NCBI GenBank assembly: GCA_046726415.1
Contig: JBKPAK010000156.1
Location: forward strand, 25,335-89,334
Source: Candidatus Methylomirabilota bacterium
GTDB lineage: Bacteria > Methylomirabilota > Methylomirabilia > Rokubacteriales > CSP1-6
Length of the DNA: 64,000 bases
Reading direction: 5' to 3'
Program-made: the position numbers
Shown here: positions 41,701 through 47,700 of the stretch, one piece after another
Layout: every line of letters starts with the position of its first letter
How positions within the stretch are numbered: the first letter of the stretch is position 1

Positions 41701-44700
41701 TGCTGTCTCGAGTCGATGCCCGTCAAGGAGCGCGCCCGGGGCCGCTACTGAGACCAGTGGCGCAGGATCCTCGGAACAGGGTGGTGGCCGGCTATACTCC
41801 CTCCGCCTTGGCGCGATACGCGAACGCCTCGACGAGCGCGTCGTCCTGCTTCACGCGCGAGTCGATTTCCACGCCAAGACCGTCCGCCATCCGGCAGCGC
41901 AGCGCGTAGTACGCCGTGACCATGACGATCTCGAAGATCTCCTCGTCGCCGAAGCCCACCTGGCGCAGCGCCATCACATGGTCTCGCGTCGCCTTGCTCG
42001 GGGTGAGGGCGAGGACCTCGACGTAGGCGAGCATGGCCCGGTCCGCTTCGGGCAGGGCCAAATCGCGCCAACTGTGCGCGAGGGTGAGCAACCTTCACGG
42101 TGGGTTGTCGGTCGCGGACCCCGCCATCCCCCCAGCGACCAAGGCCGCGAGCATCCCCGTCTGTTCAGAGGCCGAGGACACCGGCGGCGCGGGCGGTGCC
42201 AGCCACGCGCGCGCGGATCTTCTCGAAGGCCGTCTCTCGCGACGTCGACATGTCGTCGCCGAAGGGCGAGAAGCCGCAGTCGTCGGTCGTCCCCAGTCGG
42301 TCTGGCCCGAGGTACTCGGCCGCTTCGAGGACTCGATCGCGGACCGCTTCGGGGGTCTCGACCTTCGGATCGATGGGATCGGTCACGCCAACGAAGACCC
42401 GCTGATCCCGCTTTGCGTGCGCCCGGATGAGGCTGAGCACCCGGCGCCGGTCGCGCTCGCTCGCCAGCTGGATATAGAAGTTCCCCACTCCAAGTCTGAA
42501 GAGATCCGGCAAGAGGTCGGCGTAGTCCACGTCTGCGCTGTGGGTCGAGTCCCGGTCGCCGCCCGGGCACGTGTGAATCCCGATTCGCGCGCGCTCCTCG
42601 GCGGTGCAGACGTCGAACACGCGGTTGTTGAGGTCGAGGAACGCGTTCAGGAGGCCCTTCGACGGGTCGAGCTTGACGGCGAGCCGCCCCTCGGTGAAGT
42701 CGATCTGGACGCAGTGGGCACCCTGGTCCAAACATCGCCGGATGTCGGCCCGCGCCTCACGCACGAGGTCGTCGAGGAACTCCTCTCGGGGGTAGCCTCG
42801 GATGCCGTCCCGAGGGTACAGAAGACTGAGCGCCGATGCGGCGATGACCGCCTGCTTGACGGGAACGCGCGCGTACTTCCTTGCTGCCACCAGATAGGTG
42901 TCGGCATAGGTTCGGTACCTGAACGGCCCGGTCGTCAGCCGCGGCAACTGCCGCGTGTGTCGGTCGGCGATGTGATCGTGACGCCGTCCGGGGCCAGGTG
43001 CGCCAGGCCGGCGATCGGGTAGGTGGCAAAGCTCGGCTTGGTCTGCTCGCCGTCCGTGATGACGGGCGACCCCGTCGCCTCGAAACGCTCGATGGTGTCC
43101 CGGACCGCCCGATCGTAGAGCGTGTTCAGGGCCTCGCGCGAGAGGCGACCGGCGTTGAGGCCTCGACGCCGAGGATGAGTTCCGGTGGTCGTGGGATGCT
43201 GCCGATGGGTTCGGTCGGGATTGGCATGGTGCCGCTATCTCTCCCCGTTCTCCGGTCGTCAGGTTCGCGTATCCCGTCTCCAAACTGGCGTCACCGTCAC
43301 CTGAACCCTCTTCGTCAATGGCGTTTCTCGGCCAACTTCGGAAGGGAAAACACGAAGTCCTGGCCGCTCATCGGCTTGTGGCACTGGAAACACGGCTTGG
43401 CGTCGAAGTTGGGTGGCCGCTGGCCGGCGGCGGTGAAGCGCGCGTACTCCCATTCGCCGTTTCTGAGCGTTTCGGGATACTCCGCACCCCAGCCTCGTCG
43501 CTTTTCCATGACGAAGATCCCTACGAGGTCTGGCGTCCGCACCATGTGACCACTGGTGTCCCTCACGGGCTCGCCCCTCTCGTCGACTTTCGCCTTGTAG
43601 ACCTCCATCGTGAGCACCGTGCCGTCGGGCAGGGGCTGCCCGAGGGCCCCGAGGCGGGCTGCCTCGGGAGAAGCATAGAGGTCACGCACGGTCTTGTTGT
43701 CGGGACGGTCGATGGTGGCGTAAAGGACATGGCTCTTGTACCCGGACGGGAAGCTGACCTTCTCGGGGCCGGCCGTCGTCGACGTCGTGAGGGCGAGCAG
43801 CACAACAGCCGTCAGCATGATTCTGAGGATCGCCGTCCACCTCGTCTAGGGCATGTCGACGTTCATGCCGACCTGCACCCAGCTCCACGAGAAGATACTC
43901 ACGTCGTAGGTTGCGGCCCCCGCGGCACCGAGACATCGAAGTATACTCGCCCGCCAGGATTGATCTCGTTCGGGCGCCAGGCGATCAGCTGCCCAACCTG
44001 CCGCGCAGAGGGATCGTACCCGTTGACGAGGACGCGGACCTTTTGCGCCGTGAACCCCGAGGTGTTGGTGACGTACCCGTCGATCAGGACGTGGCCGCCC
44101 GTCCGGGTGGCCTGCCACTGGATCCGGAAGTACTGCTGCCAGCAATGACGAGCGGCTGGAGGTTGCCGGGCTGCCAGGTTGGGGCGCTGTCAGGGTCGCG
44201 CATCCGGCAATGGTCACGAGCACGCCCCCGAGGCTCCCGCTCCGAAGGACCGCGCTCATTCGCTGACGCATCTCCGTCCTCCTGGTGCGGGTGCCGCGCC
44301 CATCCGCTCAGCACAGAGCCTCCCGCGGGACGGGGCGGAGGGTCATGGCCTCCGCCCCGTGGGCGCTACGACGGGGATGGCTTCACTTCTTCGGGCCGCA
44401 GGGGTTCTTTGCGGCGCATGGATTTTTGGCCGCGCACGGGTTCTTGGCGGCGCAGGGATTCTTCGCCGCACACGGGTTCTTGGCCGCGCACGGGTTGGCT
44501 CCGCCGGCCTGAGCGATGTACACGTAGGCGGCGCGGCGCGCCCCCGTCTTCTCCACGTAGGAAACAGTCACATCCGATCCCGCCTTCACATCGGCGAGCT
44601 GCCTCCGCTCGGGGCCCTGGCGGACCTGCGTTCGCTGATCGACGGTGAGCGCCAGGGGGCCTGCCGCCGTCCTGACCTGGAGCGCACCGGAACTGACGCC

Positions 44701-47700
44701 GGTCACCTTGGCCTTCGCCATCTTGGCGATCCCGGGGACAGAAGCCGCTCCGCCCGCGCAGGGGTTCTTGGCACAGGGGTTCTTGGCGGCACAGGGATTT
44801 GCCCTCTGTGCCATCACCTCGGTGGCCGGAGCGAGGCTCAACGCAACGGCAACCGACACGGTCGCGATGAGTGGACGAATCATGGGGTTCACCTCCTTTC
44901 CATCCTCCGCGTCGGAGGAGAATCGGCCCGGTCTGGCCGGGCCAGGTTCGAAGTGTTTGGGGCAGGGGCATCGAGGAGCACCTGAACGAGCGCCTGAGCC
45001 GGGGGGCCACTCCAGTCCTTTCTCCCGGAGCCTCCCGCCCGGACCCTCGCAGACCGATCGATCAGGAAGTGCGTGGGGGTGAACCGCACCCCGTACGTGC
45101 GGGCCACCTCGCCCCTAGCGTCGATGGCGATGGGGAACGTGAGCTTCATGTCGGCCACGTAGGCCTTCACGCGCTCCTCGGGCTCCGACAAGTTCACTCC
45201 GATGACTCGGAGGCCTTGTTCGCGCCTCGCCCTCCACAGCGCCTCCAGGGAGGGAAACTCCCTCCGGCAGTGGGGTCACCATGTCCCCCAGAAGACGATG
45301 ATCGCGGCCAAGCCGGCCGGAGAGGAGACGCTGACCGGGTGGCCCTTCAGATCCGGGAGCGTGAAGTCCGGCGCTCGGATGCCGCTGTCGAACCGCACGA
45401 GGCCGAAGGCCTCGAACGGGTCCGGTGAGCCCGCGAGAGCTTGGCCGGCGAGGTAGAGCAGCGCGCCGAGCGTCAAGACGGAGGCTCGCGCTCGCCTCAT
45501 GGCTTCTGGCCCTTCCCGAACGTCTCGCGGATGTACCGCAGCACGCCCCTAATCTCGTCGTCGGACAGGACGTGGCCATACGGCTGCATGGTGTCGTGGC
45601 CGGCCGACGGTCGCGCCGACCCGCCCGTGCTTGATTAGGGCAAGGAGGTAGTCGTCGGAGAAGCGATCCATGAACAAGGGATCGTGGTAGTCGGCCGGAG
45701 CCGGCTGAGCGTCGCTCACGAAGTGAGGTGGCGCGGGCTGCTGGGGGCTCGCGCGTGGCCCGTCCCCGCGCCCCCGCTGGCCGTGACACGGCGCGCAGGA
45801 GTCGTCGTAGATCTCTCGGATCTCCGGCGACTGTGGTGCCCCGGTCCTGAAGGCGCGCTCGAAGGCAATGAGTTGGCGGATCTGCGCGTCCTCGAAGAGG
45901 TGCCCGAACGAGGGCATGGCCAGCGACTCCAGCGGCGAGTCCTTGACTTCACGCTTGAGGACGGCGAGCTTGCCGTACTTGATGACCTCGAACAGGTACT
46001 GGTCGGTGAGCCGCGACATGTAGTTGGTGTCACTGAACACTTGGGGGCGGGGCATCGTGTTGAGCCACGAGGGCCCCTTGCCGTCCCCCGTCGCCCCATG
46101 ACAGGCGAAGCAGATCTCCTTGTAGACGCTCTCGCCGAGGGCGAGATCGCCGCGCGGGACACTCTCGGGCCCACCCAGCGATGCGGTCACGAGCACGGCG
46201 ATCCCGCCCACAGTCGCCACCCCTCCCCACCGGCGCATCCCTCTCCTCTGGCTCGGCTCATCACGGGGACCCGGGACGTGGGCCGGGTCCCTACTCGGGA
46301 TCCTTCTAGCGCAGGCCGAGCTTCTTCTCCTGCTCGATCCGCTTCTGCTCCCACTCCTTCATCGCCTTGTACCGCGCCGGCGTCAGCGAGGTCACGTACG
46401 CTTCGAGGTCGATGTACTCCTGAGAGTTCGGATCCATCGGCTCACGGCCGAGGAATACGGTGTTTCACATGTCGTTGAGGATGCCGATCGTCGCCACGTA
46501 CCCCGGTCCGGCGATGCGCGGGTAGTGGTCCGCTGCCCCGCGAAGGTCCGGGATGGGAATGGGCATCCTGGTCCCGTCGACCATCGTTGCCGTCCCGCCG
46601 ATGGTTCCGCCTCGCGGGTGACAGCCAGCGCACCCGAGATCGTTGAACAGCTTGCGCCCACGAGCGATGGAGGCGTCGATGGAGTCGCTCGGCTTGAGCG
46701 TCTCCGTGTACACGCCCGGCGTGATGTCCTTCTTCTGCTGGGCCTTCTGCTGAGCGAAGGCGATACCAGATGTGCAGCACGGAGAGAACGGACCGCTCCC
46801 GGCCGCGAGGATCATTGCCGCGAGACTCAGGGCCATCCACTTCCTCATCTCGACTCACCTCCTTCTGTTCCGGAGTGAGCTTCACCTTGACGCTGGAGCC
46901 CTGACGGCGGTCGCAGGACCCGTCACCGCCGTGGCCAGCTCTTTCCAGCGCCAGCCGCCATCCTCGCTCACGAACACGAGCCCGCCCGTCCCGGCGTAAA
47001 CTGTCCCGGGCCGGTGGGGATTCGCACTCACGAACGTGATCGTGAGCGTCAGGACATCCTCCCCGACGGGGGTCCAGGCAGTGCCACAGGGCTGAAGTCG
47101 GTGAACGCCTCCGACGGTGCCGGCGAATCGCTCGCCTTGCGGCGTGACGAACAGGGAGAGGACAGTCAGGCTCCGCAGCGCCTCACTGAGAGGGCGCCAA
47201 GTCCTTCCTCCGTCGGCGGTGACGAACACGCCCCCTCCCGCGGTCCCCGCGTACAGGGTCTCGGGCCTCGCCGGGTGGAACGCGAGCGCCCTCACGCGCA
47301 GATCCGTCAATCCCTGGTTCACGGCGTGCCAGTGGCGCCCCTCGTCTTCACTCCAGGCCACGCCTCCGAACCCGGCGGCGAAGAGCCGCGTAGGACGGGA
47401 CGCATCCAGGCGCAGGACCCGGAGGTCTCGCGATGGGAGCCCGGCGTTGCGGGGGGTCCAGCTAGCTCCCCGATCTTGGCTCCACAGCATTCCCTCATTG
47501 GTCGCCGCGTAGAGCACCCTCGGATTGTTCGGGACAACCACGAGACTCCGGACGTTCTTGCCCGCGATGGACCCCCCCGCGCGCCGCCAGGCCTCTCCGC
47601 CGTCCTGGGAGACAAAGACACCAGAATCGGTTCCCGCATACAGCGTGCGCGGGGACACCGGGTCGACGGCGAGGGCCAAGACGCTGAGATCCTCGAGGCC

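Follow-up and report, generated by a model that had tools for sequence, protein, structure and literature searches.

NPCA(A)K repeats form a widespread undescribed protein module that probably gives periplasmic cytochromes flexible reactive cysteine arms

NPCA(A)K repeats are a protein module, both widespread and undescribed, that is either fused to unusual periplasmic cytochromes or encoded next to them and probably provides them with flexible, reactive cysteine arms. No family or paper describing the repeat was found in Pfam, NCBIfam or the literature. In the window (the whole 64,000-nucleotide stretch analysed, from contig JBKPAK010000156.1 of a Candidatus Methylomirabilota bacterium), two repeat proteins lie on either side of a Sec-cytochrome (Table 1). 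The functional link to the Sec/Cys-cytochrome family proposed in the genome-wide survey's note was strongly supported by a conserved operon, complete co-occurrence and gene fusions.

The protein under study contains nine NPC units, three N-terminal and six C-terminal, around an 85-residue domain. Its open reading frame at 44383-44892(-) encodes 169 residues; the ATG at 44883, which would give 166, is the likelier start because AGGAGG lies 8 nt upstream and the homologues start with MIR. TRF placed one of its arrays at 44397-44496 (period 18, 5.6 copies) and the other at 44759-44787. The second protein, of 134 residues, carries ten NPCAAK units with an 8-residue period (TRF 48490-48725, period 24, 9.8 copies); its gene and the propeller gene, whose start is at 47883, point away from each other, and homologues in four other loci (L032, L034, L038 and L132) share its C-terminus. 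Both proteins have a hydrophobic, signal-like N-terminal segment ending A-x-A, as judged by eye, and both are basic when mature (computed pI 9.9 and 9.4). These counts reproduced the survey's 9-10 repeats per protein. In a six-frame scan of all 352 contigs (7,604,788 bases), no ORFs but these two had at least two NPC[AGS] or at least three NPC, in line with the survey's claim that no other protein of the genome has such repeats. Its description of both proteins as largely repeats fitted the 134-residue protein and failed for the 169-residue one, in which repeats account for ~54 of 141 mature residues.

Profile searches likewise agreed with the survey: the 169-residue protein had no Pfam or NCBIfam match at E ≤ 1, and the sole family match of the 134-residue protein was to Cornifin in Pfam (1.4e-14, 54.9 bits against a cut-off of 34.8). 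Cornifin is a eukaryotic epidermal family, and the match is compositional. NPCA(A)K proteins share with Cornifin/SPRR proteins and metallothioneins a periodic Pro, Cys and Lys composition, but the repeats have no CxC or CC clusters and the 169-residue protein has no Cornifin match.

Table 1. Features of the window, with positions counted from its first nucleotide.
Feature	Position	Strand	Details and evidence
Repeat-OB-repeat protein (protein under study)	44383..44883	-	166 aa from ATG 44883, 169 aa from GTG 44892; ORF and DNA
Signal-peptide-like N-terminus	44809..44883	-	MIRPLIATVSVAVALSLAPATEVMA; sequence by eye, kept in homologues
N-terminal array	44755..44799	-	NPCAAK, NPCAK, NPCA(G)
Central 85-residue OB beta-barrel, CusF/DUF5666-like	44500..44754	-	AF2, Foldseek
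C-terminal array	44386..44496	-	Five NPCAAK, then NPCGPKK; AF2
Cytochrome P460	43315..43818	-	Next gene downstream; Pfam 1.4e-21; family often repeat-bearing elsewhere
TlpA/ResA-like thiol-disulfide oxidoreductase (Sec-TlpA)	44889..45500	-	TGA 45276-45278 at first Cys of CxxC (W-U-P-H-C)
Dihaem cytochrome c	45549..46238	-	Two cbb3-type domains; Pfam; conserved in 7 loci
Monohaem Sec-cytochrome	46306..46848	-	CAGCH ... NDM-U-NTVF; TGA 46465-46467
BNR/Ycf48-like beta-propeller	46882..47883	-	First operon gene; Pfam and NCBIfam; conserved
Second repeat protein, 134 aa	48411..48815	+	Signal peptide (by eye), ten (T/A)(L/I)NPCAAK units, C-terminal ...SPTCK
TlpA-like redoxin fused to five-CxxCH multihaem cytochrome (c554/ExtKL-like)	49015..50631	+
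Radical SAM protein	40115-40969
DUF6969	36167-36763	+
DUF3179	35004-36170	+
zf-HC2 (RsrA-like) anti-sigma factor	34286-35068	+
ECF sigma factor	33687-34289	+
DUF302	31890-32366	-
YeeE/YedE-family transporter	30581-31450	+
SoxY-SoxZ fusion	26916-27662	-
CusF-TlpA fusion	26067-26828	-	True CusF (H..MxM)

In each repeat unit the Cys is preceded by Asn-Pro and followed three residues later by Lys; single cysteines recur every 5-8 residues. Homologues of the 169-residue protein numbered 584 at E ≤ 1e-3, and 41 sequences were aligned (alignment A1); the Cys, Asn and Pro of the unit were invariant across phyla. The six NPCAAK units of the 169-residue gene differ from one another by 51 synonymous and no non-synonymous codon changes; the units of the 134-residue gene differ by 94 and 16, respectively. 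The differences being mostly synonymous, selection acts on the peptide, and the arrays are no product of recent DNA slippage. The C-terminal array is predicted to be flexible or disordered, since its AF2 pLDDT was ~50. Disordered and highly basic arrays, fused in places to LysM, PG_binding_1 or OmpA-type domains, could be inert spacers or envelope anchors that merely tether or space what is attached to them, but this is very improbable: the invariant residues and the purely synonymous differences in the 169-residue gene speak against it, spacing calls for no conserved cysteine in each unit, and the stand-alone pure-repeat proteins have nothing to tether.

The presence of one Cys and one Lys per unit would also suit a substrate for modification, in which the cysteines are converted, for instance by an FGE-like protein to formylglycine or through the action of a radical SAM/SPASM enzyme, or are cross-linked to lysines to yield modified or polymerised envelope material. 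An FGE-sulfatase-like gene occurs in 9 of 20 own-phylum loci and, interrupted, in the window, and the window's radical SAM gene has a homologue in one other locus (L042). The FGE motif is CxPxR, which is absent from NPCAAK; moreover, an FGE-like gene was near only 5 of 80 species loci (best 80 of 532), only 1 of 20 own-phylum loci had a radical SAM gene nearby, and no leader/core organisation was seen. Such a substrate role thus appears highly unlikely.

The operon runs from the propeller gene through those of the Sec-cytochrome, the dihaem cytochrome (its likely electron partner) and the Sec-TlpA to the 169-residue repeat gene, with the Sec-TlpA stop 5 nt ahead of the repeat gene's ATG. Of the 8 loci that encode a full-length OB-type protein, 7 kept this arrangement and the eighth lies on a contig that is too short, and the TGA-split TlpA was kept in loci L031 and L033-L036. 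The Sec-cytochrome was found in 13 of 251 genomes of the phylum, each with one in-frame TGA. All 13 had a repeat-protein match, 11 of them within 3 kb, and in the remaining two the contig breaks off. The related genomes in these counts are not mutually independent. The Sec column aligned with the Cys of the Cys forms, and in a profile-profile alignment the CxxCH and Cys/Sec of these cytochromes fell in the same columns as those of SoxA/TsdA-like cytochromes. On this alignment the Sec-cytochrome is a monohaem relative of SoxA/TsdA; the window's protein matched PF21342 only at E 0.024.

Fusion of repeats to the cytochrome, reported by the survey as a C-terminal tail, was confirmed and widened, and N-terminal tails were found as well. 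Arrays stood at both ends of 13 Cys forms orthologous to the window's cytochrome (13 of 62 'longer' hits), and one Sec form had a 2-unit tail. Arrays flanked SoxA/TsdA-like monohaem cytochromes in 80 of 80 species loci (best 80 of 532 relatives), a proportion biased upward because the loci were ranked with a repeat-containing query; the Pfam assignment SoxA-TsdA_cyt-c was precomputed on many fused forms. The survey's 21/27 and 11/27 differ from the present counts because other sets were used. The commonest fusion partner among the 'longer' hits was cytochrome P460 (~36 of 62), which likewise has repeats on both of its sides. Other carriers were a YHS (seleno)protein (P0093), an OmpA-like protein and proteins bearing LysM or PG_binding_1, and the longest array reached 38 NPC units (P0132). 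In other loci, small secreted pure-repeat proteins adjoined haem protein genes.

The central domain of the 169-residue protein was modelled with high confidence (AF2 pLDDT 95-98) as a CusF-like OB barrel. All four Foldseek matches at E ≤ 1e-3 were CusF, the best being 1zeq (E 2e-4, TM(target) 0.70, rmsd 2.7 Å), and the Atlas leads were DUF5666 and CusF_Ec. It has the small barrel of CusF, a periplasmic Cu(I)/Ag(I) chaperone (PF11604), but identity was ~15%, no CusF_Ec Pfam match appeared at E ≤ 1, the homologues had no conserved Met, His or Cys column and no conserved His, Met or Trp ligands, and Cys arrays stand at both ends.

This fold bears on a reading of the arrays as a soft-metal sponge or chaperone, a stretched metallothionein on a CusF-like scaffold that binds a thiophilic metal or metalloid such as Cu(I) and buffers it or delivers it to the neighbouring haem proteins. 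The composition of the arrays (Cys, Lys, Asn, Pro, Ala, no aromatics) recalls metallothionein, one homologue (P0046) is labelled CusF by one source, and SoxAX is reportedly called a haem-copper protein in the title of one study cited by PMC6879331. The array on the YHS protein, the true CusF in the window's CusF-TlpA fusion and, at locus L046, a MerR regulator with a heavy-metal ATPase point the same way. Nevertheless, metal binding seems distinctly unlikely: the OB domain lacks a conserved ligand column, the cysteines are single and unclustered, copper or RND efflux genes adjoined the cytochrome at just 8 of 80 species loci (best 80 of 532), and the arrays' particular association with His/Cys(Sec) cytochromes would be left unexplained.

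The reading favoured here, tentative but quite possible, sees the repeats as flexible thiolate arms that act as carriers in a Sox-like capture-and-import pathway and are reset by TlpA. According to PMC11582611 and PMC6879331, the Sox set comprises a His/Cys haem enzyme, a carrier Cys, a periplasmic thiol-disulfide oxidoreductase, a YeeE-like importer and a cytoplasmic acceptor, and the partner set found here mirrors SoxXA, SoxYZ, SoxS and SoxT. The survey's note had suggested a SoxY-like carrier; the SoxA/TsdA alignment, with Sec on the conserved Cys, and the Sox-like partner set favour this idea, and a carrier role is what we infer. The arrays would be polycationic strings of single reactive cysteines that serve Cys/Sec-ligated haem enzymes as carrier or acceptor thiolates. 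The Sec-cytochrome would capture a thiol-reactive sulfur (or selenium) species on Sec, passing two electrons to the dihaem cytochrome; the adduct would move to an arm cysteine supplied in trans by the repeat-OB-repeat and pure-repeat proteins, possibly with docking by the OB domain; the Sec-TlpA encoded just upstream would reset or unload the arms; and the YeeE-like transporter and cytoplasmic DUF6969 would take the cargo further. In Cys-cytochrome lineages the arms are fused to both enzyme ends. Disordered basic arms would suit an anionic cargo, and a CusF-TlpA fusion lies next to the SoxYZ fusion in the window.

Sox modules share with the window a SoxA/TsdA-related cytochrome, whose reactive residue is Cys (here Sec), beside a flexible protein-borne cysteine, an adjacent periplasmic thioredoxin-fold reductase, and a YeeE-family transporter with DUF302 nearby; in Acidithiobacillia, DUF302 is encoded between soxA and soxB (PMC5037610). 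The thiosulfate dehydrogenase TsdA/TsdB likewise has a catalytic haem domain of the His/Cys type, after which comes a gene for a dihaem cytochrome c, but TsdA itself carries two haems and has as its acceptor a second thiosulfate instead of a protein thiol. The repeat carrier also differs from Sox in lacking a SoxY/SoxZ domain and GGCGG end, in its tandem array of many cysteines, often at both enzyme ends, and in its occurrence on P460 and other domains; its cytochrome is monohaem and, in the window's form, has Sec in place of Cys. SoxY-type carriers use one cysteine, against up to 38 NPC units here, and P460, the most frequent partner, is known for nitrogen, not sulfur, chemistry. Further points against carrier arms are that the 98% complete genome yielded no SoxB-like unloading enzyme, that the cell already has a classical carrier in the separate SoxYZ fusion, that arrays occur on YHS, OmpA-like and LysM proteins, and that only 14 of the 80 species loci (best 80 of 532) had TlpA, Trx or DsbD as an immediate neighbour.

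An ECF sigma factor occurred in 31 of 80 species loci (best 80 of 532) and 8 of 20 own-phylum loci, with short H-x3-C-x2-C (ZAS) anti-sigma factors, which points to a stress regulon and away from carrier arms. The same genes would suit a regenerable oxidant sink. In this reading the secreted poly-Cys peptides and tails are sacrificed to an oxidant or electrophile of the periplasm, such as reactive chlorine, peroxide, NO/HNO or a reactive sulfur species, so that sensitive Cys/Sec-haem sites are protected, and TlpA then reduces the arrays again. The sink would be the cysteine counterpart of the hypochlorite-scavenging system of Azospira suillum, with methionine-rich MrpX, its reductase YedY1 and SigF/NrsF (PMC4436054). 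As described, both pair a small low-complexity secreted peptide, rich in a sulfur residue that can be oxidised, with a periplasmic reductase of its own, and both have an ECF-type sigma/anti-sigma pair nearby; they differ in methionine versus cysteine, in a molybdoenzyme versus a TlpA-type reductase, in the zf-HC2 type of the anti-sigma factor here and in arrays here being mostly fused to haem enzymes. Consistent with a sink are the many cysteines per chain, as stoichiometric scavenging would need, the small pure-repeat proteins beside haem proteins, a TlpA gene directly upstream of the repeat gene in the window, L053 and L058, the OsmC-type (seleno)protein, Prx-like and AhpD-like genes of the window's island, and a chlorite dismutase adjacent in 2 of 80 species loci (best 80 of 532). 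A sink is nonetheless rather unlikely, as it leaves unexplained the regular two-sided flanking of one enzyme family and the commonest neighbours, DUF6969 (58 of 80) and YeeE-like (32 of 80; both among the best 80 of 532). Stress-type regulators and nearby metal genes keep readings other than carrier arms alive.

DUF302 was present in 18 of 80 species loci, a count that, with those of DUF6969 and the YeeE-like transporter, speaks for carrier arms. The multihaem part of the redoxin fusion recurred in 19 of 80 (both best 80 of 532) and was present at 11 of the 20 own-phylum loci. The CusF-TlpA fusion has its parallel in the neighbouring genes for Sec-TlpA and the CusF-like OB protein.

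Two proteins in the window carry NPCA(A)K arrays: a 169-aa protein in which arrays lie on either side of a middle domain, and a secreted 134-aa pure-repeat protein. Both arrays were detected by TRF. A six-frame scan of 352 contigs (7.6 Mb) with thresholds of at least two NPC[AGS] or at least three NPC returned no further ORF, bearing out the genome-wide survey's note that the repeats are confined to these two proteins. The arrays contain 9-12 cysteines, one per 5-8 residues, with CxC and CC absent inside them, and the mature proteins are basic (pI 9.9 and 9.4 for the 169-aa and 134-aa proteins, respectively). 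The likelier start of the 169-aa gene is the ATG at 44883, which has AGGAGG 8 nt upstream and matches homologues starting M-I-R. All 51 codon differences among its six NPCAAK units are synonymous (0 non-synonymous), and the units of the 134-aa gene differ by 94 synonymous and 16 non-synonymous changes. That these differences are chiefly synonymous indicates, at the level of sequence, that the repeat peptide is under selection. An antisense ORF at 48293-48811 was rejected as a gene because the plus frame has a signal peptide and a C-terminus conserved in four other genomes. A lipoprotein reading was rejected for absence of the lipobox Cys, and haem attachment by the arrays for absence of CxxCH.

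Features of the repeat locus and its surroundings (window positions)
Feature	Position	Strand	Remarks
VKOR, cation-efflux, DoxD-like, DUF2064, two radical SAM (one with SPASM), family-2 glycosyltransferase	16697-23839		
CusF-TlpA fusion	26067-26828	-	true CusF domain (H...MxM) and TlpA-like redoxin (WCIPC); adjoins SoxY-SoxZ fusion
SoxY-SoxZ fusion	26916-27662	-	internal EGGCAG arm
Run of (seleno)protein-family matches	29188-30569	+	Prx-like fragment, OsmC-related (seleno)protein, PrdB-like
YeeE-like, DUF302	30.6-32.4 kb		
Second multihaem cytochrome copy	~32400-33600	-	TGA at second Cys of first CxxCH (SCGI-TGA-HP); apparent frameshift near QCQD/CHMP
ECF sigma, RsrA-like anti-sigma, DUF3179, DUF6969	33.7-36.8 kb		
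DUF6969	36167-36763	+	
Second TlpA/ResA-like redoxin	~36800-37335	+	TGA at first CxxC Cys (FWATW-U...)
FGE-sulfatase-like	39164-39919	-	in-frame stop other than TGA; orthologues elsewhere intact
Cytochrome P460	43315-43818	-	next after 169-aa protein
169-aa repeat protein	44383-44892	-	signal-like N-terminus, NPCAAK-NPCAK-NPCAG, ~85 non-repeat residues, NPCAAK x5, NPCGPKK
TlpA-like redoxin	44889-45500	-	TGA at first Cys of CxxC (W-U-P-H-C; FWGTW-U-PHC)
Dihaem cytochrome c	45549-46238	-	
Monohaem Sec-cytochrome	46306-46848	-	in-frame TGA, CAGCH...NDM-U-NTVF
BNR propeller	46882-47883	-	first gene of operon
134-aa repeat protein	48411-48815	+	signal-like N-terminus, ten (T/A)(L/I)NPCAAK units, short Cys-containing tail ending SPTCK
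TlpA-multihaem fusion	49015-50631	+	3' of second repeat gene
ORF with alkylmercury lyase (MerB) domain	61596-62288	-	Pfam 1.1e-16

The 169-aa protein had no Pfam or NCBIfam match at E <= 1, and the sole match of the 134-aa protein at that threshold was Cornifin/SPRR (PF02389; 54.9 bits against a gathering cut-off of 34.8). The survey had taken this for a repeat artefact, and we agree: the match is compositional, the family is eukaryotic, and the 169-aa protein does not match it. Searches of the full-text literature by motif spelling and topic term found no paper describing the repeat. The 169-aa protein has 584 homologues (clusters) at E <= 1e-3, and the layout of signal, array, domain and array is common among the best 120 of the 584. 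Judged from these comparisons of sequence, the NPCA(A)K repeat is a conserved and common modular building block for which Pfam and NCBIfam hold no model.

AlphaFold2, run on an alignment of 41 sequences, predicted the middle domain of the 169-aa protein as an all-beta small barrel (pLDDT 95-98 for residues ~50-125; ~50 in the arrays). All four Foldseek matches at E <= 1e-3 were CusF, the best being 1zeq (E 2e-4, TM 0.70 on the target, rmsd 2.7 A, 15% identity), and weak Atlas leads named DUF5666 and CusF_Ec. The modelled domain shares the OB-barrel fold of CusF (PF11604), whose sequence model did not match the 169-aa protein at E <= 1. A PDB profile search with alignment A1 reached CusF/SilF only at E ~2 and nothing below E 0.1. 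The metal site of CusF consists of His/Met/Met plus Trp. In the 41 sequences no column of the OB domain has a conserved Met, His or Cys, and Trp occupies one column in 26 of 41, with Ala in the window protein. We take the domain to serve as a scaffold or for docking, and not as a CusF-type metal site. A soft-metal role of the arrays, hereafter arms, would draw on the CusF fold, on copper or RND genes in 8/80 loci and on a fusion to a YHS domain (the (seleno)protein P0093, from the near-length list, has an N-terminal array), but the OB domain is without ligands and the arms are without CxC clusters, and we consider this role quite unlikely. Metallothioneins carry clustered CxC, CC and CxxC motifs; the arms, with their spaced single cysteines, have no CxC or CC. 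An OB-domain paralogue elsewhere in the same genome (contig C313, 35136-35414, plus strand; L135:5014-5478) has Lys/Ala/Pro/Glu-rich tails and no cysteine repeats.

On the minus strand the gene order is propeller, Sec-cytochrome, dihaem cytochrome, TlpA-like redoxin and, 5 nt further, the 169-aa gene; the 134-aa gene is divergent from the propeller gene. A scan of 43700-48900 found 0 promoter-like sites and 1 terminator-like site, not above shuffles, and the operon structure therefore follows from spacing and conservation only. Eight of 20 own-phylum loci encode a full-length protein of the window type, and in seven of these eight the whole operon lies beside it; the eighth is on a 4.3-kb contig. 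Two loci (L039, L040) have a QPCAAK variant with a divergent middle domain and no operon. The family profile matched in 92/251 genomes of the phylum at E <= 1e-5. The Sec-cytochrome, with exactly one in-frame TGA each, occurs in 13/251, all 13 among those 92, and a repeat gene lies no more than 3 kb away on the same contig in 11/13 (12/250 and 10/12 without the unpublished genome G076); the 13 represent 12 genera, related genomes not being independent. In the remaining two genomes (G046, G047) the contig ends just past the dihaem gene.

The Sec-cytochrome TGA replaces a conserved Cys of the relatives, probably a haem ligand, and in alignment A3 the window Sec shares a column with the invariant Cys of the Cys forms. 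All 120 near-length database homologues among the matches listed are repeat-free, 103-131 aa long and end ...ND(L/M) at the UGA, so that the annotation of this cytochrome is affected in every one. Both TGA-bearing TlpA/ResA-like redoxins are probable selenoproteins that gene callers have split in two. Sec within CxxCH of the second multihaem copy was rejected, as the TGA occurs in only this one of 23 homologous motifs and the gene carries a frameshift; this copy is probably decayed. The stretch at 29-51 kb has the look of an envelope redox island rich in selenoproteins.

The arms are also fused to other proteins. Of 62 matches among longer proteins, classed by motif and by eye, ~36 are P460 cytochromes with arrays (some with LysM or PG-binding domains in addition), 13 are Cys orthologues of the window's cytochrome with arrays on both ends, 12 are SoxA/TsdA-like monohaem cytochromes with arrays on both ends, and one is OmpA-like. 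A Sec form (L132) has a 2-unit NPCAPK tail after the Sec. In a profile-profile comparison the CxxCH and the Cys/Sec line up with the SoxA-like group and its conserved Cys at a probability of 99.9; shared repeats inflate the E-value, but the core columns are clear. The repeat-carrying SoxA-like cytochrome has 532 relatives (tblastn E <= 1e-3, one genome per species). In the best 80, each a different named record and ranked with a repeat-containing query that biases them towards repeats, the cytochrome ORF has at least three [NQ]PC units, which flank the core on either side, in 80/80, and in roughly one locus out of four a pure-repeat ORF is adjacent. Cultured carriers among these 80 include Motiliproteus, Oceanisphaera, Zobellella, Amphritea, Marinobacterium, Sedimenticola selenatireducens, Denitromonas iodatirespirans, Stutzerimonas chloritidismutans, Hahella, Marinobacter and Ferrigenium. 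Since Stutzerimonas, Pseudomonas, Marinobacter, Oceanisphaera, Zobellella and Sedimenticola are among the carriers and can be cultivated, the role of the arms is testable at the bench. The fused gene is present, for instance, in Stutzerimonas chloritidismutans AW-1, Pseudomonas sp. XK-1 and Marinobacter alexandrii. Many repeat-bearing P460 proteins contain a short conserved C-(V/T/K)-V-P-R-L element, which in P0124, P0139, P0146, P0161, P0172 and P0177 lies between two repeat blocks in the N-terminal region. A secreted domain with no Pfam or NCBIfam family, a conserved C...H..C...C and a C-terminal NPCAAK tail was seen beside DUF6969 in two loci (L049:452-1303, minus strand; L050:9330-10055, plus strand).

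SoxY has a single carrier Cys in a GGCGG C-terminal arm (GGCGG is in the title of TIGR04488), whereas the repeat arrays, with their 9-12 Cys, finish in NPCGPKK or NPCAAK.... The SoxY domain (PF13501/TIGR04488) was absent from both repeat proteins in Pfam and NCBIfam at E <= 1. True SoxY-like genes are located elsewhere: a genome search gave three SoxY-like matches, of which one exceeds the curated cut-off, and SoxB was not found in this genome (98% complete). SoxY-type proteins work with a His/Cys cytochrome of the SoxA type. The repeats are tied to such a cytochrome by fused genes, by adjacency and by the cytochrome's homology, and may work with it. The CusF-TlpA fusion also parallels the gene pair of the operon, a Sec-TlpA followed by a CusF-like OB protein.

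In SoxAX and TsdA, according to a passage of PMC6879331, thiosulfate is conjugated to the haem-ligating cysteinate with release of two electrons, and the -SSO3 group passes to a SoxYZ cysteinate or a second thiosulfate. For Hyphomicrobium, a section of PMC11582611 describes loading of SoxYZ by SoxXA, a periplasmic thiol-disulfide oxidoreductase (SoxS, or DsbA-like) thought to present or release the sulfur, and import by the YeeE-like SoxT with a cytoplasmic sulfurtransferase as acceptor. DUF302 within sox clusters of Acidithiobacillia is described in part of PMC5037610. The counterparts here are the SoxA/TsdA-related Cys/Sec cytochrome, its dihaem partner, the flexible Cys arms, TlpA, a YeeE-like transporter, DUF6969 and DUF302. 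Because each Sox part has a counterpart, our best reading, held tentatively, assigns the arms to a Sox-like path of capture and import, in which they would be the carrier or acceptor thiolates, supplied in trans to the Sec enzyme and in cis to the Cys enzyme. Both the lysines and the turn that Asn-Pro makes ahead of each Cys would help to keep the thiolate reactive and would suit an anionic cargo, for which sulfane sulfur, thiosulfonate or selenium would be candidates. The nature of the cargo aside, the mode of action is probably of a known kind, in which a reactive sulfur residue borne on a protein serves a redox enzyme of the periplasm. As carrier or relay thiols for His/Cys(Sec) haem enzymes, the arms would represent a new way to build a Sox-like system and offer a handle on a selenocysteine-ligated cytochrome.

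Neighbours were counted in the 20 own-phylum loci by tblastn with the window proteins and in the best 80 of the 532 species-level loci, 49 of which have at least 5 kb on both sides. The counts agree with Pfam on 15 of the 80.

Neighbours of the repeat loci
Neighbour	Own-phylum loci (of 20)	Species loci (of 80)
DUF6969		58 (55 within 1.5 kb)
YeeE-like		32
ECF sigma	8, plus 2 weak	31
Secreted 155-aa protein, no family		23
Multihaem cytochrome (c554-like in own phylum)	11	19
DUF302	13	18
DUF3179	9	18
TlpA, Trx or DsbD		14
Anti-sigma		13
Metal efflux or multicopper oxidase		8
FGE-like	9, plus 1 weak	5
Rhodanese		3
Chlorite dismutase		2

Further own-phylum neighbours by Pfam were AhpD-like CMD, YeeE-family, MerR, heavy-metal ATPase and DUF6969. 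The window contains this set of neighbours too, with YeeE-like, DUF302, ECF sigma, RsrA-like anti-sigma, DUF3179, DUF6969 and FGE-like genes. The frequent P460 fusions are the chief observation that the sulfur-carrier model leaves unexplained. The arms could instead be a stoichiometric oxidant sink, modelled on MrpX with YedY1 and SigF/NrsF as portrayed in an excerpt of PMC4436054. A sink fits better than a carrier with the many cysteines per chain, the pairing of sigma factor and ZAS, the island's peroxidase-type genes and the small peptides made up of repeats, and the combination of small secreted peptide, reductase and sigma/anti-sigma pair is analogous to the MrpX architecture; we regard a sink as rather unlikely. 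We place the repeat module near the SoxY, MrpX and metallothionein kinds but within none of them; wherever a family's defining features could be tested, the module lacks them. Modification of the arms as a substrate of FGE-like or radical SAM enzymes is weakly supported and very improbable: radical SAM was found in 1/20 own-phylum loci and FGE-like genes in 5/80 species loci. The proteins also differ from RiPP precursors in that the N-terminus is a Sec-type signal and not a leader, and no conserved maturase is adjacent. A mere spacer or anchor function is likewise weakly supported, and we give it scarcely any credence.

The carrier reading can be extended to a single unrecognised, widespread pathway of arms, Sec/Cys monohaem cytochrome, TlpA(Sec), YeeE/YedE-like transporter, DUF6969 and ZAS/ECF, in which selenium (bound to the arm thiols in an adduct of selenotrisulfide type) or sulfane sulfur would be captured in the periplasm and passed inward. 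This extension is doubtful; if true, the poly-cysteine arrays would be the first protein-based periplasmic selenium/sulfur shuttle, a repeat polymer in place of a folded carrier. DUF6969, the commonest neighbour of the repeat-flanked cytochrome, is a cytoplasmic protein that lacks a signal peptide. In the window, in L055, L056, L083 and in other loci, its His/Glu cluster (YYHxH..E.GHFH) is invariant. A confident model of it (pLDDT 84.8) gave no convincing PDB match (best Foldseek E 0.036; best VIA-align Z 3.5, rmsd 3.3 A over 65 residues), and neither an NCBIfam match nor literature on DUF6969 was found. The secreted proteins of ~155 aa at L053:12865-13341 and L058:12311-12775 follow a multihaem cytochrome, have three conserved Cys and end ...SCPLNPTPDY.... 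In Stutzerimonas and Pseudomonas (L083, L102), DUF2064 likewise adjoins the repeat-flanked cytochrome.
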